A stretch of 64,000 nucleotides of DNA from NCBI GenBank assembly GCA_026209155.1, contig GCA_026209155.1_3056.1; one strand, given 5' to 3'. Source of the DNA: a phage. Position numbers and translations under genes: made by a program. Under the pieces are notes generated by a model. That model was not told the origin of the DNA. It saw nothing but the letters and a program-made list of their open reading frames with translations, and made no database searches. Positions 2,712 to 62,980 of this stretch are shown here, piece by piece; position 1 is the stretch's first letter; each line of letters begins with the position of its first letter.

Positions 2712-2745
2712 TAATTATACCACATCCTTGTGGTAAAGTAAACTA
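2712..2745 (-). promoter_or_regulatory. T4-type early promoter (GTTTAC -35, 18-nt spacer, TATAAT -10) upstream of rIIA.1/rIIA
   Basis: Plus strand shows attata (2714-2719) and gtaaac (2738-2743), i.e. minus-strand GTTTAC-N18-TATAAT; spacer contains palindrome ccacatccttgtgg. Confidence 0.55.
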
Positions 2746-4560
2746 TTGGCTCATCCATTCTTTACGAAGGTCAGCATTATCTCCCATGAGCATTTCAAAA
2801 AGCTCTTTCCAGTTCTCAGGAAGTTTAACAACATCATATACTGGGTTTTGAATCATCTCACGATATTCAGATTTTTCCAAAGAGCCAAGTCCTTTAATAT
2901 AACGGATGCTATGTTTAGGTAGAGCATCTTTGGCACTCTCATATTCAGCGACTGTATAAAACCATTCTTGTTTTTTACCGACCTGAGCGATGATTACAGG
3001 AGTTTTGACAAAGCGAATTCTTCCTTGTTCAAACAATTCTGGCCAATTACTAAAAAATCCGAGCAGAGAAGGATAAATGCTTCCTAGACCATCATGGTCA
3101 GCATCAGTCATAATAGCAATATTATGATAATTCAAGTTTTCAGCCTTTTCACCAAGAACTAATCCAGTGATTGCACAAATATCGAACAGTTCTTTGTTTT
3201 TAAGCATATCAGCATATGACATGCCCCAACTGTTAAGAACTTTACCACGCAATGGATAACCACCATGAAGTTCTTTATCACGAACATCAATAAGATATCC
3301 GATAGCAGAATCACCCTCAGTCAAGAAAAGAGTAGTATCAGCATCTTTACCGCAAAGATTCGCTTTGATATGTTTATGAACCTTAGCTTTAGAAGCCTTT
3401 TTAGCTGCTTTAGTTTCTGCTGCTTTTTCTGCCGCCAATTTACGAGCCAAAGCAGCTTCAATAATCGGCATTAGAATTGCTTCATTATTTAGAATAGCGC
3501 GTGAAATCTTTTTAGCATCAAGCTGAATATGACTACGAATTTCGCCAAATGGAGAAGTCAAACGCTCTTTAGTTTGAGAATCAAATCGCATGTTTTTCAT
3601 ATCACGAACAAACATAACGATAGTCAAACATTCTTTAACACGTGCTTTAGTTACATCAATTTTGAACTTACGTTTGATTTGTGGAATAAGGTCTTCACAA
3701 ATATCATCCATAACGCAGTCAATGTGATGGCCACCATTCTTAGTATGAATGTTATTGACGTATGTTAATTGACGAAAACCATCCGGTGAACGACCAACCG
3801 CAATAGAACAATTTTCTTGTTCTTGAACAATAGCATGTTCATCATATTGGCGTGCATATTTCTTAAAATTACCCTGAACCTTTTTACCATTAAAGGTAAA
3901 TTGAATATCAGGATAAACTACTGCAAGTGTCTGGAGACGATCTAGCGTAATGTCAAGATAAACTTGAGATAGTTCATTAGTTTCAAATGACATAAAATCA
4001 GGAATGAAAGTAACACGAGTTCCTTTCCATTTTCCAGGAATAGTTTCCCATGATTTATTTTCCATGCCATTTGAACAACGAACTACAATATTATTTTGAC
4101 CATCGCCAGTTTCACCGACAAACATCACAGAAAAAATGTTAGTTAAACTAGAGCCAACACCGTTCATACCGCCAGTGACGCGTTCTTTATCATCACCAAA
4201 GTTACCACCTGCTTTTGGAATAGTCCAGGCAGCAACAGGACCAGGAATTTCTTCACCAGTAGGTGTTTTAACCATCGCTTGTGGAATACCACGACCGTTA
4301 TCTTCAACTGTTACTTGATTGTTTTTGATAGTAACATTAATTTTATTTGCGAATTTAAACTTAGTACGAATACCTTCATCTACTGAGTTATCGATAATTT
4401 CATCAATAAGCTTAACAAGACCAGGTACATACTGAACACTTTCCCATTTACCAAACAGAAAGCGCTCATGCATTTCATTAGCGGAAGAGCCAATGTACAT
4501 GCCGCTACGCTTTTTGATATGTTCAATATCGCTCAGAATTTTAATTTCATTCTTAATCAT
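2743..4560 (-). CDS. 39: DNA topoisomerase II large subunit, unsplit form (GyrB-like ATPase plus TOPRIM in one ORF)
   Basis: 606-aa track ORF starts with GTG; ATG one codon in gives MIKNEIKILSDIEHIKKRSGMYIGSS... (T4 gp39 N-terminus); TOPRIM motif EGDSA present in the same frame, so no gene-60-type interruption. Confidence 0.9.
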   Translation of the reverse strand: MIKNEIKILSDIEHIKKRSGMYIGSSANEMHERFLFGKWESVQYVPGLVKLIDEIIDNSVDEGIRTKFKFANKINVTIKNNQVTVEDNGRGIPQAMVKTPTGEEIPGPVAAWTIPKAGGNFGDDKERVTGGMNGVGSSLTNIFSVMFVGETGDGQNNIVVRCSNGMENKSWETIPGKWKGTRVTFIPDFMSFETNELSQVYLDITLDRLQTLAVVYPDIQFTFNGKKVQGNFKKYARQYDEHAIVQEQENCSIAVGRSPDGFRQLTYVNNIHTKNGGHHIDCVMDDICEDLIPQIKRKFKIDVTKARVKECLTIVMFVRDMKNMRFDSQTKERLTSPFGEIRSHIQLDAKKISRAILNNEAILMPIIEAALARKLAAEKAAETKAAKKASKAKVHKHIKANLCGKDADTTLFLTEGDSAIGYLIDVRDKELHGGYPLRGKVLNSWGMSYADMLKNKELFDICAITGLVLGEKAENLNYHNIAIMTDADHDGLGSIYPSLLGFFSNWPELFEQGRIRFVKTPVIIAQVGKKQEWFYTVAEYESAKDALPKHSIRYIKGLGSLEKSEYREMIQNPVYDVVKLPENWKELFEMLMGDNADLRKEWMSQ

Positions 4561-4610
4561 CACTTATCCTCGTTTGGTTTCGGGAATATTATACTCCGGT
4601 AATCATAAAG

Positions 4611-4632
4611 CTAAAGGCCCGAAGGCCTTTTA
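4611..4632 (-). terminator. intrinsic terminator-like hairpin (GGCC-UUCG-GGCC stem, U-rich tail) after the 90-aa lipoprotein gene
   Basis: Palindrome aaaggcc cgaa ggccttt at 4613-4630, overlapping the stop codon. Confidence 0.45.
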
Positions 4633-4902
4633 TTTAAAACGGATAGTCGAATCCTTGAAGAATAGACCAGAACACACGGTTCCTTCTACTTTCTGCCCAG
4701 TAGGTCCAATAGCACGAAATCCAGTATGCTGGAAATCATTTTCAGAGCAACCGAACCAATTATATCCAGTGATTTCAATATTAGTAAAACCACTTGAAGA
4801 CAAAACTTTGGTTGCATTATCGGCATCAGTACATCCTACTAAAGATACTGCTAATACTAATGCCGCGATAGAACGATTAACATATTTCATAATTTCACTC
4901 AA
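4630..4902 (-). CDS. putative lipoprotein
   Basis: 90-aa ORF with signal peptide and lipobox (LAVSLVGC). Confidence 0.5.
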   Translation of the reverse strand: MSEIMKYVNRSIAALVLAVSLVGCTDADNATKVLSSSGFTNIEITGYNWFGCSENDFQHTGFRAIGPTGQKVEGTVCSGLFFKDSTIRFK

Positions 4903-5266
4903 ATTTAATGGCTTGAAGAAGACTAATAATTCTCAAGCGACTTCTTTCATCTTTAACTGTAAAAGAAAGAGGGTCACCAGATTTCATAGTGATGGTGCAT
5001 CCAAAATCAAAATCTTCTGTAACTTCTTCGAATAGGTCAAATTCTTCATCATAAATTAGAACATTACTCTGAAAACTGTGAAGAATTTTTCCATCATTTC
5101 CAGATGCTGTACTAATCACTGTAACATTATTACCTTTCATATCTTCAACGATAAATTCGCTTGTAGATATTACATTACTAATAGAACCATTCCTATAAAT
5201 AGCAGAAAATAGATATTTCTTTTCTTCACCTTCGCGAATGCGATATTTCTTACCGATTTTAAACAT
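4895..5266 (-). CDS. hypothetical protein
   Basis: Track ORF 4895..5272 begins with GTG; first ATG gives MFKIGKKYRIREGEEKK... (123 aa); ATGA-type junction with upstream small ORF. Confidence 0.45.
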   Translation of the reverse strand: MFKIGKKYRIREGEEKKYLFSAIYRNGSISNVISTSEFIVEDMKGNNVTVISTASGNDGKILHSFQSNVLIYDEEFDLFEEVTEDFDFGCTITMKSGDPLSFTVKDERSRLRIISLLQAIKFE

Positions 5267-5268
5267 AA

Positions 5269-5445
5269 TCACCCTTTAAGTAAGTCGTAAAAACCGCCAT
5301 TTACATGCTTAGGAGCAGAAGGCCGACGAGTAGACAAACGATGACATTTAGGGCAAACATCATTTTCTCGTTCAGAAATCTTTTTAATTTTTTCATATTC
5401 ATGCCCACAATCTTCGGATTGGCATTTATAATCATACATTGGCAT
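5269..5445 (-). CDS. FmdB-like zinc-ribbon mini-protein (58 aa)
   Basis: Not in ORF track (<60 aa). ATG at 5443-5445 preceded by AAGGAA; translates MPMYDYKCQSEDCGHEYEKIKKISERENDVCPKCHRLSTRRPSAPKHVNGGFYDLLKG with two CxxC pairs; stop overlaps next gene start. Confidence 0.45.
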   Translation of the reverse strand: MPMYDYKCQSEDCGHEYEKIKKISERENDVCPKCHRLSTRRPSAPKHVNGGFYDLLKG

Positions 5446-5447
5446 AA

Positions 5448-6082: not shown

Positions 6083-6181
6083 TACAATTTCCTCATTAAT
6101 TGAACAGTGGAGCGATGCGTTTCAGAAGAGTAGCAGCACCTTTGGCAAATTTTCCATTTTATTCTCCAAGTTGTTTTCTGT

Positions 6182-6224
6182 ATCAGTAGTTGATATTGAT
6201 ATAATACCATAATCAACTACTGAT
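6182..6224. repeat. 13-bp inverted repeat (atcagtagttgat / atcaactactgat) flanking a promoter -10-like element
   Basis: Arms at 6182-6194 and 6212-6224 separated by 17 nt containing ataata; the conserved early-promoter leader follows on the minus strand. Confidence 0.5.
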
Positions 6225-6253
6225 GTATATAGTTTTATGAAAAAATTTAAACT

Positions 6254-6751
6254 TTATGCACAGCGGGCTTTGCTATAGTGTTTAATCCAACTTTCGGGAA
6301 TGACTTTGTATGTTCCTAAAAATACCGCGTTGTACAACTTAACGCCATCTTCTACCCATTGATCGGTAATGTATGCACACATAGCACGAGTACGGTGTTT
6401 TTGAACAACCCCTTCCTCATCTTCAGTAAATTCGAATTCATAAGGAGCAATGAACTTAATAGCCTGACCGAGTTTCCACTTAAAGTCTACACCTACATGC
6501 GAAGTATCAATCGTTTCAATTCCTTTAGCAGGAACAGCTTTCAAAAACGCAGATTCAAGAAATTTCGCACGAACATAGCCAAACTGAGGTTTAGACTTTC
6601 CATCTTTAGGAATGATACGCACTTTTACTTCAGAATCTTCATCTTTAACGCCATGTTTAAGCTGAATGCTTACAATTTCGACCAATTTTCCTGCTGCTTT
6701 AGAACGGGATTTATCAGATACACGAGCAATTTCACCAATATTAATAATCAT
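6254..6751 (-). CDS. hypothetical protein, paralog of 6828..7370
   Basis: 165-aa ORF; C-terminal motif ITDQWVEDGVKLYNAV shared with next ORF (VTDQWIEDGVELLNVV). Confidence 0.5.
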   Translation of the reverse strand: MIINIGEIARVSDKSRSKAAGKLVEIVSIQLKHGVKDEDSEVKVRIIPKDGKSKPQFGYVRAKFLESAFLKAVPAKGIETIDTSHVGVDFKWKLGQAIKFIAPYEFEFTEDEEGVVQKHRTRAMCAYITDQWVEDGVKLYNAVFLGTYKVIPESWIKHYSKARCA

Positions 6752-6793
6752 AGTTATCTCTCACTTGTTAAAAAGATTTTATACTCCACAGGA

Positions 6794-6827
6794 CCATTAT
6801 ACTCTGGTCCCAAGAGTTTGTAAACTA
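6794..6827 (-). promoter_or_regulatory. T4-type early promoter
   Basis: Plus attata 6796-6801 and gtaaac 6820-6825 (minus GTTTAC-N18-TATAAT); flanked by ggacc/ggtcc inverted repeat. Confidence 0.5.
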
Positions 6828-7372: not shown

Positions 7373-7873
7373 TTATCTCATTTCAATAAAATCTATGAGT
7401 TCAGCATGCGATTTGCGGAACATTACTTGGTGCCCGCCAATGATAACTTCATCTTCAGGAACTTCGTATACAGCGAGATAAAATCCTTTAGAAGATAATT
7501 CTTCCCGCTCTTCTCGTGTGAACCATCTCATCATATCATATTCACTAGCGAAAGCAAAATGATAAAGAGCTATAAACCATCCTGGAATATGATATTCTAC
7601 TCCAACATAATCTTTCTTGAACTTAGTATTAATTACTATATTAGCGTTTTTAACTAATAGTTTATCTTCGTGTGGTAAAGGAATTCTTTTATTATTATCG
7701 CTATGATGCATAAAATTAGGTCTGTCATAACCTACGTGTAATAGCCACTCTTCGCTCCATGAATCTATTATACTCCTGTACGGCGTTATTTGAACACAAA
7801 GATTTCGACGTATTGTTATAGCATCTTCATAATCAAGAATACTAAACGATGATTCAACACGATAAATTTTCAT
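7373..7873 (-). CDS. hypothetical protein
   Basis: Track ORF starts with TTG at 7912; ATG at 7871-7873 with GAGGA RBS gives MKIYRVESSF... (166 aa). Confidence 0.5.
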   Translation of the reverse strand: MKIYRVESSFSILDYEDAITIRRNLCVQITPYRSIIDSWSEEWLLHVGYDRPNFMHHSDNNKRIPLPHEDKLLVKNANIVINTKFKKDYVGVEYHIPGWFIALYHFAFASEYDMMRWFTREEREELSSKGFYLAVYEVPEDEVIIGGHQVMFRKSHAELIDFIEMR

Positions 7874-7898
7874 TTTATTATCCTCAGTAGCTATGGTG

Positions 7899-7932
7899 TT
7901 ATAATACCACAACTAACCGAGGAAGTAAACAA
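7899..7932 (-). promoter_or_regulatory. T4-type early promoter
   Basis: Plus ataata 7901-7906 and gtaaac 7925-7930, 18-nt spacer. Confidence 0.5.
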
Positions 7933-10750: not shown

Positions 10751-11497
10751 TTATCCTCGGATAAGTTTAAAAATTGAACAATTTAGCGGGTATCCTCTTT
10801 TCAGTTTAAGTTTATCAATAAAAGACAAGTTTTGATACCGCTCTACACCTTGAATAATTTTATCACACATATCATATTGCATTTCTGCTTCTGACAACTT
10901 TTTCACAGTTTTCCAATCCGAGCCTTTAAGAAGAACGTTCAATTTAACAACTTCAGCGCCTTCTGCTATACGAGAACCATCAATACGAGCTTTAAGTGCT
11001 ATAATCGTTAGCTTAACGTCAGAGGTTTGTTTTGATTTAGAAAGCTGAGAAATGTGCTCAATTCGGTTTTCGCGTTTTTTCTGTATAGCTTTAATTTGAT
11101 TATAAGTCTTTTTGATTTTAGCCCATTTCTTTTCATCTAAATTTAGTTTATGAACTTTTTTCGCAGATGAACGACCAATTCGCAAAGCAAATAAATCACG
11201 CTTTTCAATCAACTCTTCTAAAGTATAATCAGAACGAAATGTATTATACTTTTTCTTTACTGCAATAACATTCCCTTTAATGTATCCAACGTTATTATCA
11301 AAACGTTCTAATGATAATTTCTCTCCTTCAATACGATTATCAAAAGGTTCTCCCGAGTAAGCGCAAACTTTCTGATCTAAAATGTTCTTAATGTAATTGA
11401 AGTCTAAGTTAAAATCTTTAGAACGTCTTTTAGCTGATGCCTGAGTATGCTCTAGACGACGTGTAATTTTACGAATTTGATTTTTAGACAGTTTCAT
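10751..11497 (-). CDS. hypothetical protein at the srd position
   Basis: 248-aa basic protein between dda.1 and modA; synteny with T4 srd, sequence identity not verified. Confidence 0.45.
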   Translation of the reverse strand: MKLSKNQIRKITRRLEHTQASAKRRSKDFNLDFNYIKNILDQKVCAYSGEPFDNRIEGEKLSLERFDNNVGYIKGNVIAVKKKYNTFRSDYTLEELIEKRDLFALRIGRSSAKKVHKLNLDEKKWAKIKKTYNQIKAIQKKRENRIEHISQLSKSKQTSDVKLTIIALKARIDGSRIAEGAEVVKLNVLLKGSDWKTVKKLSEAEMQYDMCDKIIQGVERYQNLSFIDKLKLKRGYPLNCSIFKLIRG

Positions 11498-11524
11498 ATT
11501 TTTCTCACGGACGATTAACTACTT

Positions 11525-11558
11525 ATACTATATCATTTTTACTTCAGCTTGTAAACAA
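11525..11558 (-). promoter_or_regulatory. T4-type early promoter upstream of the srd-position gene
   Basis: Plus actata 11527-11532 and gtaaac 11551-11556 (minus GTTTAC-N18-TATAGT). Confidence 0.5.
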
Positions 11559-12215: not shown

Positions 12216-12835
12216 TCAACTACCTCAATATCATAAACTTTAAATGTTCCAAATGAATTGTGTAATTTTTCTTTTGAAATAGAAGTTATTTTATACTTTC
12301 CAATTGGAATCATCCATTCTTGTTCACGCACAATCATCATTAAGTTATCAGTACGCTCTGAATCTAGCCCATCAGTATCTTCATATGTGTACTTAAACTC
12401 AGTATTAGGAGAAGAAAGTATAATATCGCTGATATGGTCAGAATAATTAAAAGCTTTATCAGTTTTTAAGCGAAATATTATTTCAGTGAAATACTCAAAA
12501 TAAGAAAAACCACATGCTGTGTGCAAACTAGTAGTAAATGAATCTACTCTGTTCGTTGAAAACACTTCTCCAACTTGTAAATCTTTAATGAGTTCTTTTG
12601 TCGATTTTGATATACCACGATATAGCTGATAAGGCGATTTAGTTAAATGTTTTTTAACGATTTTATTCAACTGCTGATGAAGAGCTTCATTCTTTTTGGC
12701 TTCCATACATTGCCAAAGAACTGACTGTTCAAAGTCAGTAAATTTTTCACAGACCTTTTTATACATATCATATTGAAAATCAACGCTTTCAGCTTTTATA
12801 GATAACTGTTCAACATCTACAAGATTAATAATCAT
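12212..12835 (-). CDS. modB: ADP-ribosyltransferase ModB
   Basis: ATG at 12833-12835 with GGAGG RBS gives 207 aa (MIINLVDVEQL...), matching T4 ModB length; track ORF extends 4 codons upstream. Confidence 0.7.
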   Translation of the reverse strand: MIINLVDVEQLSIKAESVDFQYDMYKKVCEKFTDFEQSVLWQCMEAKKNEALHQQLNKIVKKHLTKSPYQLYRGISKSTKELIKDLQVGEVFSTNRVDSFTTSLHTACGFSYFEYFTEIIFRLKTDKAFNYSDHISDIILSSPNTEFKYTYEDTDGLDSERTDNLMMIVREQEWMIPIGKYKITSISKEKLHNSFGTFKVYDIEVVE

Positions 12836-12859
12836 GATAGCCTCCATATACTTCAGAAG

Positions 12860-12893
12860 CTATCATATCATTGTTAGGAAGGAAAGTAAACAA
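12860..12893 (-). promoter_or_regulatory. T4-type early promoter upstream of modB
   Basis: Plus atcata 12862-12867 and gtaaac 12886-12891. Confidence 0.5.
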
Positions 12894-14731: not shown

Positions 14732-14937
14732 TACAAAAAGCCTCTCTTGAATTCAACTTGCTTCTCACCATAATCATATCGAATCTCTGCGTTAAATTCG
14801 ACAGAACCATCTGCGTACATCATAAATGAATGCACAACAACTTCTGTAGACCATGGCTGTAGTTCATATTTCTTCATTACATGCCGTGAAATGATAATAT
14901 CTAAATCTTCATTTGGTTTAATCCAACGATTTAACAT
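14731..14937 (-). CDS. hypothetical small protein
   Basis: 68-aa ORF directly downstream of an early promoter. Confidence 0.45.
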   Translation of the reverse strand: MLNRWIKPNEDLDIIISRHVMKKYELQPWSTEVVVHSFMMYADGSVEFNAEIRYDYGEKQVEFKRGFL

Positions 14938-14961
14938 AGTGCTCTCCTCTATAAGATAATT

Positions 14962-14995
14962 TTATTATACCATACTCATTTTGGAAAGTAAACCA
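14962..14995 (-). promoter_or_regulatory. T4-type early promoter
   Basis: Plus attata 14964-14969 and gtaaac 14988-14993. Confidence 0.55.
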
Positions 14996-15000
14996 GTAAA

Positions 15001-15028
15001 ATAAAAAAGGACTCCCGAAGGAGTCCTT
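15001..15028 (-). terminator. intrinsic terminator after soc
   Basis: Hairpin aggactcc cgaa ggagtcct (15008-15027); minus-strand RNA has a UUUUUUAU tail. Confidence 0.6.
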
Positions 15029-15034
15029 GAATTA

Positions 15035-15280
15035 TTAACCGCCAGTTACTTTCCACAAATCTTCGTTTGCAGCAATCCACGCAGCACGTTGATTTTCTTC
15101 ATATACAGTAGTATATGCTGCTTTTTCTGAAGGGAATGTCTGGTAATGAGCACCAGAAATTTTGTGAACGTCAGAATAAAGAGGGAAAGCTACAGAAATT
15201 TCCTTTCCTTCAATTTTCTTATTTCCATCTAATTTCTGCTCAAATGTTTTGATATTAACATAACCGCGAGTACTAGCCAT
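15035..15280 (-). CDS. soc: small outer capsid protein Soc
   Basis: 81-aa ORF MASTRGYVNIKTFEQKLDGNKKIEGKEISVAFPLYSDVHKISGAHYQTF..., matching T4 Soc. Confidence 0.9.
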   Translation of the reverse strand: MASTRGYVNIKTFEQKLDGNKKIEGKEISVAFPLYSDVHKISGAHYQTFPSEKAAYTTVYEENQRAAWIAANEDLWKVTGG

Positions 15281-17975: not shown

Positions 17976-18268
17976 TATTCACCTACCACTTCAGCGATGA
18001 TATTTTTGTTATTAAAGTTTTTATCGCAATACAGAACATAATTATACTGCATTACACCACCAGACTTAAGTTGTTTTTGCACTTCAGCTTTCATTTCAGG
18101 ACGATCGCGCTCAACGATATTCATAATATCCGCTTCAATTTGAGTTTCAACTTCAGTCTGATCCGCAGTCATAGACCATTCGCACAAATCTTTATCATAA
18201 CCTGCCATAGCAGGCTGAGCAGCACAAGAAGCTAAAGCAAAAATTGCGGCAAAGATAAATTTTTTCAT
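17975..18268 (-). CDS. sp: Spackle periplasmic protein
   Basis: 97-aa ORF with signal peptide MKKFIFAAIFALASCAAQPAMA; size and position match T4 sp (61.3). Confidence 0.65.
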   Translation of the reverse strand: MKKFIFAAIFALASCAAQPAMAGYDKDLCEWSMTADQTEVETQIEADIMNIVERDRPEMKAEVQKQLKSGGVMQYNYVLYCDKNFNNKNIIAEVVGE

Positions 18269-18294
18269 GATAATCTCCTCAGTAGTTTATGTTT

Positions 18295-18328
18295 ATATAG
18301 TATCTCAATTTCCAACAAAAGTAAACAG
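18295..18328 (-). promoter_or_regulatory. T4-type early promoter upstream of sp
   Basis: Plus atagta 18297-18302 and gtaaac 18321-18326. Confidence 0.5.
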
Positions 18329-18628: not shown

Positions 18629-18770
18629 TGAAAGCTTTAACTAATGCTTTATTAACTTCAGCATACTGAGTAGTAGCCCATTGAACGTCATCTTTCATCA
18701 TTGTGGTTTCTTTAGTAAACATGCTTTCATTCTTAAACCACCCCATAAAAACTACCTTTACCAATTCCAT
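18588..18770 (-). CDS. dmd: Dmd-like small protein
   Basis: 60-aa ORF MELVKVVFMGWFKNESMFTK... adjacent to gene 41; matches my recollection of T4 Dmd (61.5). Confidence 0.6.
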   Translation of the reverse strand: MELVKVVFMGWFKNESMFTKETTMMKDDVQWATTQYAEVNKALVKAFIDDKKVCEVDCRG

Positions 18771-47526: not shown

Positions 47527-47552
47527 AATAATCTCCTCAGTAGAAAGTAAAA

Positions 47553-47586
47553 ACATTATACCACATCCTTGTGGCAAAGTAAACTA
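47553..47586 (-). promoter_or_regulatory. T4-type early promoter, near-identical copy of the rIIA.1 promoter cassette
   Basis: Plus attataccacatccttgtggcaaagtaaac (47555-47584) versus attataccacatccttgtggtaaagtaaac at 2714-2743. Confidence 0.55.
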
Positions 47587-49978: not shown

Positions 49979-50506
49979 TTATGCGAGTACCGTCTTTAAC
50001 CGTTCTTCAAACTTCCGAAGAGTATTCTGGCGTTCAGCTCTTTGCTTTTTGTAAGTTTCAATACGCTCTGAAATGAGAGTGTATCGTTCATTTACTGATT
50101 CTTTCATAAAATCAGGAATTTCACGAGAAGCTTTAATCTCGTCAAATTTATCAATAACAGCTTGCTCTTCAGCAATTAAGTTATCATACATCAAAATATC
50201 TTTCTCGATGAACTCAATATCTTCTTGAGTTACACGAGATAATTTAGATGCTTTATCCTTTTTGTACTGTTCATTAGTATCACGAGACCAGTGTAATGTA
50301 CGATTTTTATTCGTATTCTTGTAAATTTCTACAATACCAATCTCATCGATAATAACGATCCAATTCCAACGGGATTTGTAAATTTGTCCTCCATCAACCG
50401 TGATTTCACCACCGATTGAGATGTCATTAAAGAACTTGCTTTGTGCTTCAGATTTAAATTTACCATCATTGTAGTTTACCAAGTTGAAAATATCTTTAGC
50501 ATTCAT
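49979..50506 (-). CDS. hypothetical protein with C-terminal coiled coil
   Basis: 175-aa ORF directly downstream of an early promoter. Confidence 0.45.
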   Translation of the reverse strand: MNAKDIFNLVNYNDGKFKSEAQSKFFNDISIGGEITVDGGQIYKSRWNWIVIIDEIGIVEIYKNTNKNRTLHWSRDTNEQYKKDKASKLSRVTQEDIEFIEKDILMYDNLIAEEQAVIDKFDEIKASREIPDFMKESVNERYTLISERIETYKKQRAERQNTLRKFEERLKTVLA

Positions 50507-50531
50507 TTTTGTTCCTCCGTAGTTGATAGTT

Positions 50532-50565
50532 GTATAGTACCACAGAGGAACGGTCTTGTAAACAA
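50532..50565 (-). promoter_or_regulatory. T4-type early promoter
   Basis: Plus atagta 50534-50539 and gtaaac 50558-50563; flanked by gttcctc/gaggaac inverted repeat. Confidence 0.55.
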
Positions 50566-50969: not shown

Positions 50970-51938
50970 TTATTTCAGAAGAGTAACCTCAGCGATTTCT
51001 TCCCAACCGTTTTTGTCGGTCATAATAAAGTCAGCAAGATAAAGAGCAGTACGCAGTGAAACATTGCGTAAACGATTAACATTGACTTTCATCCATGATA
51101 ATGCTTTATAAGTTTCTTCATCAGAAAGACCGCGCTTTTGCATCATGTCAGTTGAAAGAATAACATCTTCAACCCTGACCATAATTTCTTCATTAGTGTG
51201 AACACCCAAATCCAAATAAACTGAGCGGGACACTAATGCTTGTAAATGTGGAGCAAGTTTAGTACCACGGTCTAATTCGCGGTCAATGTCAACGTTTGTG
51301 ATAAAAACAATTGTTCCTTTAAATTCAAACTCACGCTCAATGCCTTTTTCTTCTAAGTAAGAAGATGCAGTGCTCCAGCAGACTTTACGGGTCTCTCCAG
51401 TGTCCAGAGCAGCTTTCAGAAGATTAAGAATGTCCATATCAGAGAAAACATCCACATCATCAATCAAAAGGACAGAATTCTCTTCACGATTATTCCAGAG
51501 CTGTTCATAAAGACCGATACCAGAGATTTTACCGTTAATGCTTTTATATTCAATGTATCCAATATCATTTGCTTTATTTAAAGCTTTATCTAAAGAATAC
51601 GTTTTACCAATACCCGCCGCACCAGAGATAATTAATGAACGAATGTTTCCGTTAATAATACCATTCGTCATCATTCCCATAACATTAAATCTTTTATTAA
51701 TGCGGGTTTTCATATCTTCATATGATTCTTTAACTTCTTCAACTTTTACACCATCATATGAAATGTCTGATTTGTAAACCCAAACACCGCGACGTTTACC
51801 GTCAATTTCAACAAAAACTTTACCATCTCCTTGTGCATCTACCGGAGCATTATCCGGGAACCATTCGCCTAAGAGCTCAAAAGTTCCAGAGATTTCTTTA
51901 CCGAAGTAGATACCCTTATTGATAGTTACAGTTTTCAT
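50970..51938 (-). CDS. AAA+-type ATPase (P-loop NTPase)
   Basis: ATG at 51936-51938 with GGAG RBS gives MKTVTINKGIYF... (322 aa); Walker A GAAGIGKTYS, Walker B LLIDDVD, sensor-1-like FITN. Confidence 0.55.
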   Translation of the reverse strand: MKTVTINKGIYFGKEISGTFELLGEWFPDNAPVDAQGDGKVFVEIDGKRRGVWVYKSDISYDGVKVEEVKESYEDMKTRINKRFNVMGMMTNGIINGNIRSLIISGAAGIGKTYSLDKALNKANDIGYIEYKSINGKISGIGLYEQLWNNREENSVLLIDDVDVFSDMDILNLLKAALDTGETRKVCWSTASSYLEEKGIEREFEFKGTIVFITNVDIDRELDRGTKLAPHLQALVSRSVYLDLGVHTNEEIMVRVEDVILSTDMMQKRGLSDEETYKALSWMKVNVNRLRNVSLRTALYLADFIMTDKNGWEEIAEVTLLK

Positions 51939-51970
51939 TTTATTCTCCAAATCCGTATCAGTTGATAGTT

Positions 51971-52004
51971 GTATAGTACCATAAAGCTTTATGCTTGTAA
52001 ACCG
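51971..52004 (-). promoter_or_regulatory. T4-type early promoter with conserved leader, upstream of the ATPase gene
   Basis: Plus atagta 51973-51978 and gtaaac 51997-52002; leader ...CAACTATCAACTGATACGGATTTGGAGAATAAAATG shared with loci at 24480-24556 and 6157-6230. Confidence 0.55.
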
Positions 52005-52021
52005 TTTTGTGAAAAAAATTT

Positions 52022-52051
52022 AAAATAAAAAAGGGAGCCCGAAGGCTCCCT
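52022..52051 (-). terminator. strong intrinsic terminator after the nucleotidyltransferase-like gene
   Basis: Hairpin gggagcc cgaa ggctccc (52033-52050) followed on minus strand by UUUUUUAUUUU. Confidence 0.65.
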
Positions 52052-52052
52052 A

Positions 52053-53066
52053 TCATTTATAATAACTTCGATGGTTTTCAAGATAGACTTTCTCAAGGAA
52101 GTCATCCCAAAAACCCATGTCCACTTTTTGCTGCATACCGTTCTTAGAAGCTTCAGTAGATGCTGCTTCTACTTGATCGACCACATCTTCCAAAAACTCT
52201 TGAACGGTTTTAAATGGATGTTTACCCAACTTCACGTCGAGAATAAATGGAGCGTCTTGAAGTGGATAGACTAAGTCGCCAGTTTTGTAAATTTCCAATA
52301 GTTGAAGTCCACCACGACAGGCATGGCTCAGAGCTTTCCAGTCAATGCCTTCGTTGGCTTCGGCCTTACGAGCGCGTTCACCATATTCAGCATCTAATTT
52401 GTTCAGTGACTGCTTAAGCTCAATAAGAGAAAGCGTTGTCTGATATTTACGACCCAACACAGTGTAGAACGTTTGTGGGCCTGTTTTCTCATGATTATGG
52501 AACACCCATTCACAGAATTCGTTTTCTGGAAGACGATGCTTAATATCTTCAACTTTAGTGCGACGCTGCTTAATAGAACCATCTTCTTGGTAATCAATCC
52601 ACTGCTCAGGGATTTGATTAACTACTTTCAATACATCACGTAATGCAGCCAAACGAGAACCCTTGACACCGTATTTAGAAGCTTGCTTGCGGACATATCC
52701 TAAATAGGATTTCATGTTAGTCGTATAAAAACGAGAACGGTTGTCTTGAATAAACTTCCACACATCAAGCAAATCAGATTTAACCACTAGTTCAGGTGGA
52801 GTGTGAAGCATATCCAATGCTACAGTTTCACCATCTGCTGCTAATTTAAAGAAATATTTAAGACTGTATAGTTCATGGTCAATATCATCTTTAGTGTTTT
52901 TAGATGATGTGTTGTTAGTGTTTTTACTCATGTGCTCTTTGACATTTCCGATAAGAATATCACGAGCAGGAGGAACAAAAATTTCTTTAAAATCTACATC
53001 AGATTCTGGGGTAGAAGTTCCATAAAGATGACTACCAAAATAGCTTTTCATTACTGTTTTCATCAT
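52053..53066 (-). CDS. Pol-beta-superfamily nucleotidyltransferase-like protein
   Basis: 337-aa ORF; N-terminal FGSHLYGTSTPESDVDFKEIFV fits the GS-x(9-13)-DxD nucleotidyltransferase signature; about 230 aa of unassigned C-terminal sequence; start may be an internal Met. Confidence 0.5.
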   Translation of the reverse strand: MMKTVMKSYFGSHLYGTSTPESDVDFKEIFVPPARDILIGNVKEHMSKNTNNTSSKNTKDDIDHELYSLKYFFKLAADGETVALDMLHTPPELVVKSDLLDVWKFIQDNRSRFYTTNMKSYLGYVRKQASKYGVKGSRLAALRDVLKVVNQIPEQWIDYQEDGSIKQRRTKVEDIKHRLPENEFCEWVFHNHEKTGPQTFYTVLGRKYQTTLSLIELKQSLNKLDAEYGERARKAEANEGIDWKALSHACRGGLQLLEIYKTGDLVYPLQDAPFILDVKLGKHPFKTVQEFLEDVVDQVEAASTEASKNGMQQKVDMGFWDDFLEKVYLENHRSYYK

Positions 53067-53524: not shown

Positions 53525-53526
53525 AA

Positions 53527-54600: not shown

Positions 54601-54730
54601 TACATACTCCTCTGAATCATATCAATAATGTTGTTCACCAGATTATAAGTAAACATTGGGTAATTATATTGAATCACCACATACACAACAAACAAAACTT
54701 TCATTCTCTTCTCCTTGGCAGTTGACAAGA

Positions 54731-54764
54731 TTACTATACCATAACCTTGCCAACTTGTAAACCA
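54731..54764 (-). promoter_or_regulatory. T4-type early promoter
   Basis: Plus actata 54733-54738 and gtaaac 54757-54762. Confidence 0.5.
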
Positions 54765-55328: not shown

Positions 55329-55516
55329 TATTCCACCACATATGAAAGAGAGAATATTGCACACGCCATGTGAGTTGCAACTTCATCACACATATTATAA
55401 CGTTTCTTAAGAAGTTCTACAAGTTCTTCACTAGTAACTTCATCCATGTCGACGAAAAAATCACCATTAATGATGACGTAGATATTTCCTTCTTGATTGA
55501 GTGCTTCAATTTTCAT
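55328..55516 (-). CDS. hypothetical small protein
   Basis: ATG at 55514-55516 with GAGGAG RBS gives [21 protein letters not shown]... (62 aa). Confidence 0.4.
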
Positions 55517-55542
55517 GATGTTCTCCTCTTTATCTGATAGTT

Positions 55543-55576
55543 GTATAGTACCACAGCTCAAACGGAAAGTAAACCG
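55543..55576 (-). promoter_or_regulatory. T4-type early promoter
   Basis: Plus atagta 55545-55550 and gtaaac 55569-55574. Confidence 0.55.
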
Positions 55577-55582
55577 GTAAAA

Positions 55583-55608
55583 TGAAAAAAGTCTCCCGAA
55601 GGAGACTA
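55583..55608 (-). terminator. intrinsic terminator
   Basis: Hairpin agtctcc cgaa ggagact (55590-55607) followed on minus strand by UUUUUUCAUUUU. Confidence 0.6.
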
Positions 55609-55611
55609 ATG

Positions 55612-55998
55612 TTATTCGAGGGAAAGAAGATACTTACTCTGATAAAACATTCCAGTAATATCATCTATCGTGCTTTGGATGGCTGGAGGCATTTCTTTAT
55701 AAATGCTGTTAGATTGGTCTAGTATGCGATCAATCATTTTAATTGTGTCGGTAGGAAGTTTACTGGCATCTGGAATTGAAGGTGTGTATTTTCTACCAGA
55801 ATACCCCAAATATTGCTCACCAAATTTATCAATCAAATCTGGCAACTCGGAGAAAATAAAATCGTATGCTTTGTGTCTAGCATAATTTTTAGTTTCAAAA
55901 TGTGCAGAATGAAAATAAGCTTGTGCAGCCATTAATAAACCTAAGTATTCATCTGCCTTTGAAGGTTTTCCACTTTGTGAAAAGTCGCTGAATTTCAT
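55612..55998 (-). CDS. hypothetical protein (rI.-1 position)
   Basis: 128-aa ORF. Confidence 0.45.
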
Positions 55999-59267: not shown

Positions 59268-59729
59268 TCATTGAGTTTTAATTACTGCTTTAGAAGCCTT
59301 TCCTGGTAAACGACGACTGTTGATAATTGCCATCCTGCATTGAAGCGACGGGTCTTTGAACTTCGCGTTAGGTTTACAAACTGTAAATCCAAGCCAAAGA
59401 TTTCCATCTGTGATTTCTAAACGTCCAGGACGATATTCAACCCCATCAATAAAATCCTCGTCAATGTCAGGACGCGGAGGCATACTCAGGAATTCATTAA
59501 CTTCTAAAACATGGTCTTTTATTTTATGGAATAATTCAAAAACATATGTCTCGTCAATCTCCCGTTGAATTGCACGATCAAGAAGATGCTGAGAATATTT
59601 TAGATGAAACGATGAGACCCCTGCTGCTTTTGATGCCTCACGAATCTCATTGTTAATTTGACGAAACTCCGACTCAAAGTGACGACGAAGCTTATTTCGA
59701 CGGATAAAAACTTCTGTATTGATAGTCAT
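59268..59729 (-). CDS. regB: RegB endoribonuclease
   Basis: 153-aa ORF MTINTEVFIRRNKLRRHFESEFRQINNEIREASK...; matches T4 RegB. Confidence 0.85.
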   Translation of the reverse strand: MTINTEVFIRRNKLRRHFESEFRQINNEIREASKAAGVSSFHLKYSQHLLDRAIQREIDETYVFELFHKIKDHVLEVNEFLSMPPRPDIDEDFIDGVEYRPGRLEITDGNLWLGFTVCKPNAKFKDPSLQCRMAIINSRRLPGKASKAVIKTQ

Positions 59730-59754
59730 GTTATTCTCCTCTTAACTGATAGAA

Positions 59755-59788
59755 AAATTATACCACAGTCAAGAGGAAAAGTAAACAG
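59755..59788 (-). promoter_or_regulatory. T4-type early promoter upstream of regB
   Basis: Plus attata 59757-59762 and gtaaac 59781-59786. Confidence 0.55.
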
Positions 59789-61761: not shown

Positions 61762-61840
61762 TTAGTTTCTCTTAAGGTTTGGGCCATTCCGTGGCACATG
61801 AATTGTCCATTTCTGTATTTACCCCTCCAAGTAATTATGA

Positions 61841-61874
61841 ATATACTATCACAATTCTAGGAGAAAGTAAACTG
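61841..61874 (-). promoter_or_regulatory. possible early promoter
   Basis: Plus gtaaac 61867-61872 with atacta 18 nt away (minus GTTTAC-N18-TAGTAT). Confidence 0.35.
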
Positions 61875-62177
61875 TTATTTACCTTTAATTACTTTAGCTG
61901 CTTCGATAGCCGCTTGCTGAAGGTCATCCATAGACATACCGAATTTAGAAGCAAAGTTATCAATTTTCTTTTCGACAGCATTCAAAGGCTTGGCCTGTTT
62001 ACCTTCATTAGCGCCAGGAAGAGCGAGAATACGCTCTTTGTCAATATAAAGGCTTACAAGTTTCTTACGGTCTTTATCGGACAAATCATGAAATGAATGG
62101 GCCTTTTTATTTATAGCGGCTTCTAATTTACCTGCACTCACTCGCGCTTCAGTAATAAATTCTTGATACGTTTTCAT
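61875..62177 (-). CDS. ipII: internal protein II-like (capsid-targeted)
   Basis: 100-aa ORF beginning MKTYQEFITEARV (capsid targeting sequence of T4 internal proteins); rest resembles T4 IPII as recalled. Confidence 0.65.
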   Translation of the reverse strand: MKTYQEFITEARVSAGKLEAAINKKAHSFHDLSDKDRKKLVSLYIDKERILALPGANEGKQAKPLNAVEKKIDNFASKFGMSMDDLQQAAIEAAKVIKGK

Positions 62178-62205
62178 TTTTGTTTCCTTGTTTGTTTTGA
62201 TAGAG

Positions 62206-62239
62206 TAATTATATCATATTAATACTTAAGCGTAAACTG
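62206..62239 (-). promoter_or_regulatory. T4-type early promoter upstream of the ipII-like gene
   Basis: Plus attata 62208-62213 and gtaaac 62232-62237. Confidence 0.5.
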
Positions 62240-62240
62240 T

Positions 62241-62501
62241 TTAAGCTTTACCGCCAGAAATAATTCCGAAGTTGTTAAAATCATATCCAATATCGTCAAC
62301 ATCTACTTTAGGGCTTGCTACAACATAAGCAATTTCACTACGTTTTGCATAGGTGTTTATTTCTCTACCATCGCCGCCTAGGAAAGAATACCCATTACGT
62401 TTTAATGAGACAAAATCTTCGGCATCACCAACGAAAGCTTTAACTTTAAATTTAGGGCCTTTGGCATCTGCTTCAGCGATAAATTCTTGATACATTTTCA
62501 T
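62241..62501 (-). CDS. internal-protein-like small protein with capsid targeting sequence
   Basis: 86-aa ORF beginning MKMYQEFIAEADA. Confidence 0.55.
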   Translation of the reverse strand: MKMYQEFIAEADAKGPKFKVKAFVGDAEDFVSLKRNGYSFLGGDGREINTYAKRSEIAYVVASPKVDVDDIGYDFNNFGIISGGKA

Positions 62502-62507
62502 TTTTCC

Positions 62508-62921
62508 TTAGTAAATTGATTTACCATAGTATTTGTACCAAGTAGGGCGTTGAGCAATTTTTTCATCTAAGCGAGCTTGACTTATCGCAATGGACGCTTC
62601 GGACGGGACATAATTATTACGAAATTCGACAGGGATGTCGGAAATATCCTGGACAGTCGTGTCCTTGATTTTGAAACCACGTTTCAAGCATTCAGCGATT
62701 AGCTCGATTTGACGTAAACGTAAAAATTCGAGTTTGTCGTAAAAGAATGTTACGTGACCTGTGCCTAAGATAAATGTTGGAGAGATTTTAAAATCCTTTA
62801 CACGTTTACCGTTTTGAACATGTTTACGGACTGCACCAAATACGCGTGGTAATTCACGATACTCAGCCATAAGATGTTGGTCGGTCAGTTCAGAAACAAG
62901 TGTTAAATTGATACGAGTCAT
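62508..62921 (-). CDS. denV: endonuclease V (pyrimidine dimer DNA glycosylase)
   Basis: ATG at 62919-62921 with GGAGG RBS gives [34 protein letters not shown]... (137 aa); track ORF starts 4 codons upstream at a TTG. Confidence 0.9.
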
Positions 62922-62946
62922 AATTTCCTCCAAGTAGTTGATGAAT

Positions 62947-62979
62947 GTATAGTATCAAAGTCCTTGGAGGAAGTAAACA

Positions 62980-62980
<1 letters not shown>
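62947..62980 (-). promoter_or_regulatory. T4-type early promoter embedded in an SD-containing inverted repeat, upstream of denV
   Basis: Plus atagta 62949-62954 and gtaaac 62973-62978; arms ttcctccaag (62925-62934) and cttggaggaa (62963-62972). Confidence 0.55.

Follow-up and report, generated by a model that had tools for sequence, protein, structure and literature searches.

Early promoters of a T4-like phage form cassettes that often mark indel and replacement boundaries, some with a predicted arm that would hide the Shine-Dalgarno sequence

Introduction

T4 early promoters have been described as a succession of UP element, -35 box, TGn motif and -10 box, with many conserved positions outside the hexamers (PMC2988021). 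They are cited for the T4 regB, denV and mobD.5 sites (PMC3014915, PMC1702504), the regB promoter being described in PMC3014915. PeSL (promoter-early stem-loop) cassettes have already been proposed as recombination sites (Arbiol 2010, PMC2839356; Comeau 2014, PMC4122927), with TTTACW-N17-TAYWAT as the published PST/T4 consensus (PMC2839356, PMC4122927). In T4 hairpins of the e, soc, 49 and I-TevI type, the 5' arm lies upstream of the start of the proximal promoter, so that only proximal transcripts are translatable (PMC3014915). In the accessible literature we did not find a description of an arm within T4 early promoters that hides the Shine-Dalgarno (SD) sequence, and in the accessible reviews TIR-sequestering examples were found only at late or middle promoters. 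Here, we analyzed a window of 64,000 nucleotides (the whole stretch of phage DNA) which, judged by its sequence, corresponds to the early region from rIIA to denV in a Tequatrovirus. Its early promoters very probably form cassettes, about one third of them with an arm predicted to hide the SD, that often mark the boundaries of indels and replacements.

Results

Early-promoter cassettes of the window

The window is about 95-97% identical to its T4 relatives, and all its genes are minus-strand. When up to one mismatch was allowed, the motif GTTTAC-N18-TATAAT was matched 14 times in the window, always on the minus strand, against an expectation of 1.04 and a maximum of 5 in shuffled sequence (0/100 shuffles reached 14). 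A relaxed scan (up to two mismatches, spacer 17-19) gave 39 matches on the minus strand versus 17 on the plus strand. About 22 of the 39 have an SD and an ATG downstream, and the first-pass annotation was thus correct in counting at least fifteen promoter sites. The geometry is constant, with -35, TGn (18 of 22 cassettes), -10, an SD near +10 and an ATG near +22, where start sites were set by rule 7 nt past the -10 box. The pyrimidine-rich stretch after the -35 box is possibly in part a promoter feature, which would provide some SD complementarity for free.

The strongest direct-repeat families of the entire window are these cassettes. That the repeats are early promoters, as had been proposed, is borne out by the UP/-35/TGn/-10 architecture, by their position directly 5' of an SD-ATG on the coding strand and by sequence orthology to T4 sites, for example before regB, denV and mobD.5. 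The cassettes are classical T4 sigma-70 early promoters, and this core is already known. We attribute their resemblance to a common tuning to the RNA polymerase and ribosome of a single host, a few subfamilies also being true paralogues: the roughly 100-nt imm.1/nrdC.10/cef/e.8 family and the pairs rIIA.1-nrdC.4 and dmd-mobD.2. Their members in the window, together with the motB cassette, are:

2686..2743, minus strand: rIIA.1 cassette, promoter core near-identical to 47555-47586
47524..47584, minus strand: nrdC.4 cassette, twin of 2714-2745
24485..24600, minus strand: leader-family copy 1, with UP, promoter, CAACTATCAACTACTGATACAGA leader and GGAGAATAAAATG
51936..52062, minus strand: leader-family copy 2 (nrdC.10), its -35 box immediately preceded by a UUCG-loop terminator (52021-52062)
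6122..6248, minus strand: leader-family copy 3, between motB and cef, with a degenerate -35 box, ATATAC
18768..18829, minus strand: dmd cassette, 14-bp hairpin across the -10 box with the SD outside (-17.3, z = -5.0)
54702..54762, minus strand: mobD.2 cassette, 14-bp hairpin across the -10 box (-16.5, z = -5.1)
6749..6825, minus strand: motB cassette, hairpin across the -10 box (-15.2), in one direct-repeat family (D2) with dmd and mobD.2

The near-identity noted earlier between 2714-2743 and 47555-47584 amounts to 29 of 30 positions, and to 31 of 32 over 2714-2745 and 47555-47586 (direct-repeat family D5). It ends at the -10 box and 2 nt upstream of the -35 box, and the same twin pair, with the same lone A/G difference, is found in T4. 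The rIIA.1 spacer holds a hairpin, CCACA-AGGA-TGTGG. The leader described as common to three loci is indeed shared, 24477-24511 being 94% identical to 51928-51962 and 6147-6181 74%; the similarity spans about 100 nt including the UP region, and in T4 a fourth copy precedes e.8. A further stretch, 50516-50564, which the first-pass annotation did not list, is 90% identical to 24507-24555 over 49 nt. Copy 1 drives imm.1 in T4 and would here drive an extra 78-aa ORF (24251-24487) inserted exactly at the ATG. The only reading frame after copy 3 is an 11-aa mini-ORF (6122-6157), and in its 13-bp helix (6230; -17.8) the spacer pairs with the leader only, leaving the SD free. The mobD.2 and dmd cassettes are 84% identical over 38 nt.

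Helices that cover the Shine-Dalgarno sequence

Several cassettes had been described as embedded in inverted repeats with the SD in one arm. Six cassettes carry such an SD-covering helix of 8-13 bp, with the 5' arm upstream of the predicted start site and the 3' arm over the SD:

62919..62978, minus strand: denV cassette, -35 at 62973-62978, -10 at 62949-62954, predicted +1 near 62942, ATG at 62921
59727..59786, minus strand: regB cassette, arms 59766-59778 (just 3' of the -35 box) and 59736-59748 (SD)
50504..50563, minus strand: nrdC.8 cassette, helix of 9-13 bp, arms 50543-50551 and 50511-50519 (SD)
12833..12891, minus strand: modB cassette, second architecture, arms 12856-12868 and 12833-12845
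7871..7930, minus strand: motB.2 cassette, arms 7908-7924 and 7880-7894 (SD), -17.4
61808..61872, minus strand: decayed cassette 5' of vs.8, with nothing but a 12-codon mini-ORF after it, helix -13.5

The denV arms, 62963-62972 (TTCCTCCAAG) and 62925-62934 (CTTGGAGGAA), form a perfect 10-bp inverted repeat, as the first-pass annotation had it, with the SD inside 62925-62934. The helix (-20.2 kcal/mol) is predicted to lower the unpaired probability of the SD from 0.38 on promoter-initiated RNA to 0.00 on read-through RNA (0/100 shuffles as low). Corresponding values are 0.90 versus 0.00 for regB (13 bp including G-U pairs, -22.4) and 0.77 versus 0.00 for nrdC.8 (-22.2). In modB (-15.3; own-versus-other rank 0/21) the 5' arm begins in the 3' half of the -10 box and extends through position -1, and the 3' arm covers SD and AUG alike. 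The decayed cassette is of the sequence type that precedes denV in locus L021.

Across the 22 cassettes, the mean predicted SD unpaired probability falls from 0.63 on promoter-initiated to 0.27 on read-through RNA, and in nine of them 10% or fewer of the dinucleotide shuffles of the upstream part reach an equally low accessibility, in agreement with the earlier proposal. Duplexes between a promoter and its own TIR were stronger than mismatched pairs, with permutation p-values of 0.0004 and 5e-5. In T4, where 131 annotated gene starts were compared, helices of -14 or below occurred at 6 of 24 early-promoter starts versus 2 of 107 others, the two being the known cases of gene 49 and I-TevII. About two thirds of the cassettes are without an SD-covering helix. 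The idea that the SD is occluded on read-through but not on promoter-initiated RNA therefore stands, computationally, for about one third of the cassettes and falls as a general property.

The stem-loops could instead terminate or attenuate upstream RNA, the role assigned to them in the PeSL papers, where one RB49/phi1 stem-loop cuts lacZ expression like a strong terminator (PMC2839356). The cassettes at 14993, 52002 and 55574 do carry a GC-rich UUCG hairpin and a T-run immediately 5' of the -35 box, and the terminator-bearing nrdC.10, mobD.5 and mrh.2 cassettes belong to the same direct-repeat family (D9). However, true terminators and occluding helices reside on different cassettes: the terminator scan found no terminator upstream of the occluded ones and missed the SD-covering helices themselves, whose loops of about 10-30 nt contain the -10 box and which lead into A-rich sequence and the AUG, with no U-tract. 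Their 3' arm is always the SD with covarying flanks, which a terminator would not need, and we consider termination an improbable account of these helices. The terminator-bearing and other remaining cassettes, with two weak candidates, are:

55514..55619, minus strand: mobD.5 cassette, UUCG-loop terminator 55578-55619 upstream
14935..15038, minus strand: mrh.2 cassette, terminator 14997-15038 upstream
62175..62237, minus strand: cassette of the ipII-like gene, without occluding helix
39102..39164, minus strand: cassette of the 55.6 homologue, from motif scan and geometry
18266..18326, minus strand: sp (spackle) cassette, from relaxed scan and geometry
11495..11556, minus strand: srd cassette, from motif scan and geometry
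44140..44212, minus strand: promoter-like site inside 49.1, 5' of pin, a weaker candidate without TGn and with GC-rich upstream sequence, adjoining the 49.2/49.3 replacement breakpoint at 44266
38626..38719, minus strand: weak promoter-like site in coding sequence (55.5/55.4), doubtful

Covariation across T4-like phages

In orthologous cassettes of other T4-like phages, the pairing is kept while the sequences differ. For 27 unique denV variants, own arms paired at -15.5 versus -9.7 kcal/mol for crossed arms (0/20,000 permutations as low); variants of the second architecture have an arm that terminates exactly at -1, and those of loci L016, L020 and L021 retain merely a 5-bp core. The regB orthologues have at least seven arm sequence types, every one complementary, and those of nrdC.8 a second arm type. 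RB69 has a perfect 13-bp helix of different sequence at motB.2 and an equivalent 10-bp helix with changed bases at modB. Contiguous pairs past the SD core numbered 4.2 in own versus 1.07 in crossed combinations (0/50,000 permutations as high), and among 188 unique cassettes from 31 loci, 21% reached -14 kcal/mol or below versus 2.8% of mismatched pairs; permutation p-values are optimistic here, since the compared sequences are mutually related. On a motif-anchored alignment, which is an artificial construct, 72% of cells were paired versus 59% in shuffles (0/500), with a covariation score of 0.379 versus 0.173 shuffled and 0.085-0.135 slid. Motifs, geometry, complementarity and covariation are directly observed in these data.

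Similarity and dyad symmetry could be functionless by-products of the promoter consensus and of recent duplication, given that conservation in T4 early promoters extends to many positions beyond the hexamers (PMC2988021), that several cassettes are clearly paralogous and that a T/C-rich stretch after the -35 box is common. The pairing, however, persists although both arms have changed, across many sequence types and two architectures, and mismatched promoter-TIR pairs of the same consensus are far weaker, making this the least credible of the alternatives, at very long odds. Folding, own-versus-other complementarity and compensatory variation in orthologues together support a predicted occlusion in about one third of the cassettes.

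Cassettes and recombination boundaries

Breakpoints relative to T4 and four close relatives fall repeatedly inside cassettes: at 24474 (cassette ATG), 51932/51948, 61824, 62979 (G of GTTTAC) and 44266. The one at 61824, within the SD of the decayed vs.8 cassette, recurs in five comparisons; L096, L097 and L106 have breakpoints at the ATG or leader of the nrdC.10 cassette, and a single denV cassette type is found with four distinct upstream contexts. Roughly one in two breakpoints falls at a gene boundary that has no cassette, and spacers with a cassette account for a large fraction of the intergenic DNA as a whole. Breakpoints in the close relatives were not clearly commoner in cassettes than at gene boundaries generally. 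The suggestion that the cassettes are sites of modular recombination survives: the recurrence of breakpoints inside them fits the PeSL model, but is in these data inseparable from viable indels that simply end between genes. As short shared sequences located between genes, the cassettes coincide with many indel and replacement boundaries among relatives, in line with the PeSL model.

Discussion

In the mechanism we propose, a cassette consists of an A/T-rich UP region, a GTTTAC -35 box, a spacer of 17 or 18 nt ending in TGn and a TAnnnT -10 box, followed by a predicted A start about 7 nt further on, an SD near +10 and an ATG near +22. In about one third of cassettes the promoter DNA also encodes the 5' arm of a predicted RNA helix, located right after the -35 box or from the -10 box to position -1, the 3' arm being the gene's own SD, at times with the AUG. 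RNA from the cassette's own promoter would lack the 5' arm and be translatable; read-through RNA from upstream would have both arms, and its SD would be hidden. The likely effect would be to limit synthesis of DenV, RegB, ModB, MotB.2 and NrdC.8 to the 2-5 minutes of early-promoter firing. We infer where transcription starts, that read-through RNA exists and that translation is affected.

A ribosome terminating upstream could, alternatively, melt the 5' arm, so that downstream translation would be proportional to that of the upstream neighbour rather than silenced. Coupling by a stop-proximal arm is a classical arrangement in other systems, and here only 1-8 nt separate the upstream stop codon from the -35 box, with the first-architecture 5' arm beginning 7-14 nt past the stop. 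Most arms, however, begin 11-14 nt past it, which from the usual footprint should be roughly out of reach of a terminating ribosome, and the second-architecture arm (modB, many denV variants) lies about 30-35 nt past it and ends exactly at -1, suggesting that the start site is the boundary that matters. Coupling therefore appears as improbable as termination. Marginally less probable still is that the helix shields the GGAG of the SD from RegB on long transcripts, stabilizing polycistronic RNA, with silencing as a side effect. RegB cleaves the GGAG of early SDs, and secondary structure inhibits it; in sixteen T4 RNAs that resist RegB the GGAG sits within a stable structure, and in vivo the SD of denV also resists RegB (PMC1702504). 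Yet the denV resistance has been ascribed to the sequence 3' of the GGAG, replacement of which rendered the denV RNA cleavable in vivo (PMC1702504), and regB, with the strongest helix, still has an efficiently cleaved SD (PMC3014915).

Gating of translation by promoter position, our preferred reading, can be set beside several known systems. With T4 early promoters the cassettes share the GTTTAC -35 box, spacing, extended -10, A/T-rich upstream region, conserved start region, placement before early genes and direct sequence orthology; nothing essential differs, apart from their occurrence in another Tequatrovirus genome and, for some (denV, imm.1), in other contexts. In some cassettes the leader end, GGAGAAUAAAAUG, matches the RegB/S1 target (GGAG and an A-rich tract) deemed canonical in PMC1702504, GGAG plus AAUAAAA, but such sites account for only the last 13 nt or so of the shared leader and not for the paralogy over about 100 nt. 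PeSLs likewise combine an AT-rich region, an early promoter, a stem-loop, an SD and an ATG; they cluster in variable regions and adjoin indels and replacements. In the PeSL papers, however, the stem-loop is read as a terminator or attenuator, that of PST/T4 lying upstream of the promoter, whereas the best-supported helices here extend across the start site as far as the SD. The promoter-encoded SD-hiding arm would be a conserved detail beyond the known early-promoter/PeSL core. Closest in principle are the hairpins of T4 e, soc, 49 and I-TevI (also I-TevII/III, mobE and segB), in which SD and/or AUG pair with a 5' arm at comparable stability (gene 49, -17.2; I-TevII, -16.9; e, -11.9; versus -15 to -23 here). 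Those genes rely on a late (or middle) proximal promoter, with a "late only" effect; the proximal promoter here is of the early sigma-70 type, and the predicted "immediate-early only" gating would mirror the late-only gating of e, soc, 49 and I-TevI.

Early promoter cassettes

The first-pass annotation had claimed at least fifteen repeated minus-strand promoters of the type GTTTAC-N18-TATAAT, and both the motif and the number held: allowing up to one mismatch gives 14 matches, none of them on the plus strand (1.04 expected; no shuffle reaches that count), and a relaxed scan returned about 22 sites with a Shine-Dalgarno sequence (SD) and ATG downstream. In DNA this rich in A+T, a generic sigma-70 scan has no discriminating power (87 matches versus 82 expected), so that only the phage-specific motif is informative. 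The -35 element GTTTAC (TTTACW) and the -10 element TAnnnT lie 17 bp apart (N18 if counted from GTTTAC), a TGn (extended -10) closes the spacer in 18 of 22 cassettes, and in 21 of 22 the 24-nt stretch preceding the -35 has an A+T content of 58-88%. In most cassettes an A is found about 7 nt past the -10, an SD at around +10 and the ATG between +20 and +25, and in 20 of the 22 the co-oriented SD-ATG follows 19-38 nt downstream. Searches at the gathering threshold found no Rfam family in the window.

T4 early promoters are described as being of the ‘UP / -35 / TGn / -10’ type with further conserved positions (PMC2988021), those of regB and mobD.5 being cited in PMC3014915 and PMC1702504, and the T4 counterparts of the cassettes are near-identical in sequence. 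Since promoter features are missing from both the RefSeq and the GenBank T4 records, orthology to mapped promoters was based on literature and sequence. The cassettes are classical T4 early promoters, real, probably functional and already known in their main lines; as such they would be served by unmodified host RNA polymerase immediately after infection. Inside the mobD.2 ORF, shortly before ATG 54600, is a second, weaker promoter-like site (54625-54654, GTTTAC-N18-CATTAT).

Repeat families and shared leaders

In a blind repeat search, these cassettes formed the largest direct-repeat families in the window; further large families were UUCG-loop terminators and an internal-protein leader. The pair 2714-2743 and 47555-47584, singled out earlier as near-identical, agrees at 29 of 30 positions (31 of 32 over 2714-2745). 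Recent exchange between 2714-2745 and 47555-47586 in this phage was rejected, as T4 has the pair with the same single difference; being unchanged there, the twin promoters of rIIA.1 and nrdC.4 are, by this comparison, inherited and not recent. The leader reported as common to three loci was confirmed by sequence and repeat search. The imm.1, nrdC.10 and cef-upstream copies (the last at 6230, between motB and cef) are alike over about 100 nt, and T4 has a fourth in front of e.8; the resemblance exceeds any consensus and indicates true paralogy of this family. Within the shared leader, the segment GGAGAAUAAAAUG agrees with GGAG + AAUAAAA, taken in PMC1702504 as the canonical RegB/S1 target. A conserved hairpin in the shared leader (CAACTATCAACTAC...) of promoter-initiated RNA was rejected, since the copy at 52002 is unable to form it.

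Helices covering the Shine-Dalgarno sequence

Each leader was folded in two versions, both ending at ATG+18: a promoter-initiated RNA that begins at the predicted +1, and a read-through RNA that begins 60 nt before the -35. It had been suggested that inverted repeats would hide the SD on read-through transcripts, and across 22 cassettes the mean SD unpaired probability indeed fell from 0.63 in promoter-initiated to 0.27 in read-through RNA. For 9 of the 22, no more than 10% of the dinucleotide-shuffled upstream sequences reached an equally low value. Inverted-repeat arms containing the SD, proposed for several cassettes, were found in six, whose read-through SD unpaired probability is at most 0.03.

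SD-covering helices of the six cassettes and their energies (minus strand).
denV, -20.2 kcal/mol
regB, -22.4 kcal/mol
nrdC.8, -22.2 kcal/mol
motB.2, -17.4 kcal/mol
modB, -15.3 kcal/mol
61872, decayed copy upstream of vs.8, -13.5 kcal/mol

The denV arms (62925-62934 and 62963-62972) form a perfect 10-bp inverted repeat. Two architectures were observed: in the first, the 5' arm begins directly after the -35, and in the second, seen in modB, it extends from the 3' half of the -10 up to exactly -1, its partner comprising both SD and AUG. Counted from the predicted +1, the 5' arms cover about -31 to -11 or -13 to -1. In the cef-upstream copy, a 13-bp helix straddles the start site and stops short of the SD. 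When each promoter region (-36 to -1) was paired with each translation initiation region, own duplexes were stronger than mismatched ones (permutation p = 0.0004; 5e-5 with the whole leader).

Conservation across T4-like phages

Upstream of denV, 36 T4-like and jumbo-phage IMG/VR loci carry at least 12 different arm sequences, nearly all complementary.

Examples of denV arm pairs.
TTCCTCCAAG/CTTGGAGGAA, window
TCTCCTGTAG/CTACAGGAGA, T4
TCTCCGTTTG/CAAACGGAGA, further example
TAGTGTTCTC/GAGAACACTA, further example
TAGTAGCCT/AGGCTACTA, further example
ATGTCCTCCTA/TAGGAGGACAT, further example

For 27 unique denV variants, own duplexes averaged -15.5 kcal/mol versus -9.7 kcal/mol for mismatched ones, and none of 20,000 permutations was as low. 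At least seven arm types were found among regB orthologues and two for nrdC.8, and in RB69 the bases differ but the motB.2 helix (13 bp) and the modB helix are retained. Outside the SD/anti-SD core, contiguous pairs came to 4.2 for own versus 1.07 for mismatched partners. Among 188 unique cassettes from 31 loci, 21% reached -14 kcal/mol or lower, compared with 2.8% of mismatched pairs.

A plain MAFFT alignment of whole cassettes placed the helix types in differing registers and gave no single column structure that could be counted; it was replaced by the own-versus-other duplex tests and by a motif-anchored construct containing all 43 cassettes with CTCC or CCTC in the spacer, picked regardless of flank pairing. 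In the latter, 72% of cells were paired versus 59% in shuffles (0 of 500 as high), and the covariation score was 0.379 versus 0.173 for shuffles and 0.085-0.135 for slid partners. On this comparative evidence, compensatory changes in many T4-like phages have preserved the SD-covering helices.

A different composite precedes denV in jumbo phages (~350 kb; L026, L029, L033 and L034, denV at 1501): a terminator-like hairpin, GGGTTGAC-TTCG-GTCAGCCC, whose stem includes TTGAC, the -35 of a promoter of the form TTGAC-N-TATAAT. No SD pairing was found in the composites of these four loci.

Specificity and alternative readings

The initiation regions of 131 annotated T4 gene starts were scanned against the 42 nt upstream, with a cut-off of -14 kcal/mol or lower. 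Such helices were found at 6 of 24 early-promoter starts versus 2 of 107 others (Fisher p = 0.0005). The two non-early matches are gene 49 and I-TevII, both established cases of ribosome binding site sequestration (PMC3014915); the method thus recovers known positives.

Four other readings of the helices were weighed: that they are terminators, that they serve translational coupling, that they protect against RegB, or that they have no function. The first has a precedent in the papers on promoter-early stem-loop (PeSL) cassettes, where stem-loops are read as terminators or attenuators (PMC2839356, PMC4122927). The SD-covering helices do not have the form of intrinsic terminators, since their loops are long and are followed by A-rich sequence and the AUG, and the only cassette hairpins that are GC-rich with a short loop and a U-tract are three located upstream of other cassettes.

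Terminator hairpins upstream of cassettes.
14997-15038, upstream of the cassette at 14993
52021-52062, upstream of the cassette at 52002
55578-55619, upstream of the cassette at 55574

These three terminator-preceded cassettes have no occluding helix, a number too small for a test. No terminator was found upstream of the occluded cassettes, where the stop codon of the upstream gene abuts the -35; read-through is therefore expected. SD occlusion on read-through RNA, the preferred reading, draws its support from covariation and specificity, and the SD-occluding subset is the part worth follow-up.

Stem-loops occupy several positions within the cassettes: the spacer (2743, 47584), across the -10 (18829, 54762, 6825), across the start site (the six SD-covering cassettes and 6230) and, as terminators, upstream (14993, 52002, 55574).

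Hairpins spanning the -10.
18793-18829, minus, dmd cassette
54726-54762, minus, mobD.2 cassette
6789-6825, minus, motB cassette

These hairpins are very stable, have stems of ~11-14 bp, end near +6 and leave the SD untouched (-15 to -17 kcal/mol, z about -3 to -5); between the paralogous dmd and mobD.2 hairpins both arms differ, with full pairing in each. A separate family of the GGGCC-GAAG-GCCC type (UUCG tetraloop on the minus strand) is located at gene ends, and a weak promoter-like CTTTAG-N17-TATAAT runs out of each of the hairpins at 4616 and 34913.

Hairpins of the GGGCC-GAAG-GCCC type.
4612-4633
27427-27448
29374-29395
34909-34930
38280-38301

Genome setting and cassette junctions

The first 20 kb and last 24 kb of the window are ~95-97% identical to hundreds of T4-like phages of Escherichia, Shigella and Yersinia, and the matches to these two parts included no near-identical full-length record. 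Every gene lies on the minus strand. Collinearity of the window with T4 spans 1-67 kb of the T4 genome, from rIIA to gene e, with breaks mainly at homing-endonuclease or other accessory genes of T4. Gene 39 is a single 606-aa ORF (2743-4563) that lacks the T4 insertion splitting 39/60 (60.1, mobA and the 50-nt translational bypass).

T4 genes absent or replaced in the window.
15318-15402, segF
15923-15944, dam
21778-22725, segA and b-gt
36119-36144, mobB
42469-42472, nrdD intron with I-TevII
53067-54030, mobD

Gene 56, beside the segF slot, is merely 76% identical to T4. In the place of b-gt, a 282-aa ORF (21868-22716) matches Pfam TAGT (TET-associated glycosyltransferase, E = 6e-10), suggesting that a different enzyme glucosylates the DNA here. 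The mobC slot is occupied by a 276-aa ORF (40367-41197) with a NUMOD3 motif, a weak match to the I-TevI DNA-binding domain under the Pfam cutoff and ~70% DNA identity to part of T4 segB; it is probably a seg-type homing endonuclease. A 295-aa ORF (30077-30964) separates gene 45 from rpbA, an insertion compared with T4, and gave no confident match in a Pfam search.

Several junctions with T4 also fall at cassettes. An extra 78-codon ORF is inserted precisely at the imm.1 cassette ATG (24241-24473); this 78-aa ORF (24251-24487, between the imm.1 promoter cassette and imm.1) has a hydrophobic N-terminus resembling a signal peptide (MKIVMGCLAVCLVALTA...) and no Pfam match. The end of the 49.2/49.3 replacement is 54 nt from the promoter-like site at 44212. 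The denV gene, which follows ipII in T4, is here upstream of two internal-protein-like genes (61875-62501) with a common N-terminal leader, MK(T/M)YQEFI(T/A)EA, seen as a 75% direct repeat (62146-62216 versus 62470-62540); the first is separated from denV by TAAGGAAAAATG alone. The remnant at 61872 is of the type that precedes denV in another phage, L021, and is followed only by a mini-ORF. Mini-ORFs of 11-12 codons stand alone downstream of two cassettes (6122-6157, 61772-61810), which look like scars of lost or moved genes.

In four close relatives (L096, L097, L098 and L118), about 10 of 22 breakpoint ends (author's count) lie inside cassettes; others are at cassette-free gene boundaries. 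Breakpoint 61824, inside the SD, recurs in five comparisons, further cassette breakpoints are 62979 (the G of GTTTAC) and 51932/51948, and one denV cassette type occurs in four different upstream contexts, the homology beginning at the -35. In L096, a 453-bp insertion begins at ATG 54600 in the mobD.2 ORF. The breakpoint analysis left out 25 more distant IMG/VR loci (67-81% identity), because alignment ends there reflect loss of similarity and not recombination. PeSL elements, with the PST/T4 consensus TTTACW-N17-TAYWAT, have been proposed as sites of modular shuffling (PMC2839356, PMC4122927). The breakpoints are consistent with that model, as they are with the trivial expectation that the indels which survive have their ends between genes, and enrichment beyond ‘intergenic’ is not demonstrable from these data.

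A putative early-only translational gate

RNA starting at a cassette's own promoter would lack the 5' arm and be translated, while on RNA from upstream promoters the helix would form and translation would be prevented. Early promoters are switched off within minutes (PMC3014915), which predicts synthesis in the immediate-early period only. Such timing would suit RegB, a nuclease already controlling its own mRNA, the ADP-ribosyltransferase ModB and the DNA repair nuclease endonuclease V. We advance, as a possibility still open to considerable doubt, that about 20-30% of T4-family early promoters, always including those of regB and denV, encode an anti-SD arm in the spacer or -10 region, so that translation of the gene would be limited to its own immediate-early transcript, with all read-through RNA remaining silent.

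Textbook T4 biology in themselves, the cassettes are of value mainly for the correct annotation of this genome; what may be added is that early promoters, too, make use of the promoter-in-a-hairpin device familiar from late genes. If true, this would be a conserved, covarying ‘early-only’ gate, the counterpart in reverse of lysozyme's late-only gate, and RegB would gain a third layer of control. Confirmation would explain a short early burst of potentially harmful enzymes (RegB, ModB, endonuclease V) despite ongoing read-through, and would offer engineered phages a compact portable design with promoter, ribosome site and insulator in 60 nt.

A 2010 review of post-transcriptional control covers hairpins at late or middle promoters only and gives regB control without a hairpin (PMC3014915). 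No description of an early-promoter SD gate was found there or in the PeSL papers; older primary papers may mention such hairpins. PeSL cassettes, like those of the window, are single intergenic units that unite early promoter, stem-loop, SD/ATG and an AT-rich region. A confirmed gate would refine how PeSL stem-loops are read, some of which appear to be translational and not transcriptional insulators. In the hairpins of e, soc, 49 and I-TevI, the SD and/or start codon lies in the helix and the 5' arm upstream of the proximal start, and the six cassettes, with predicted starts, have the same arrangement. That class has a late (gp55) proximal promoter and late-only translation, whereas the window cassettes have early sigma-70 promoters and the opposite predicted timing.
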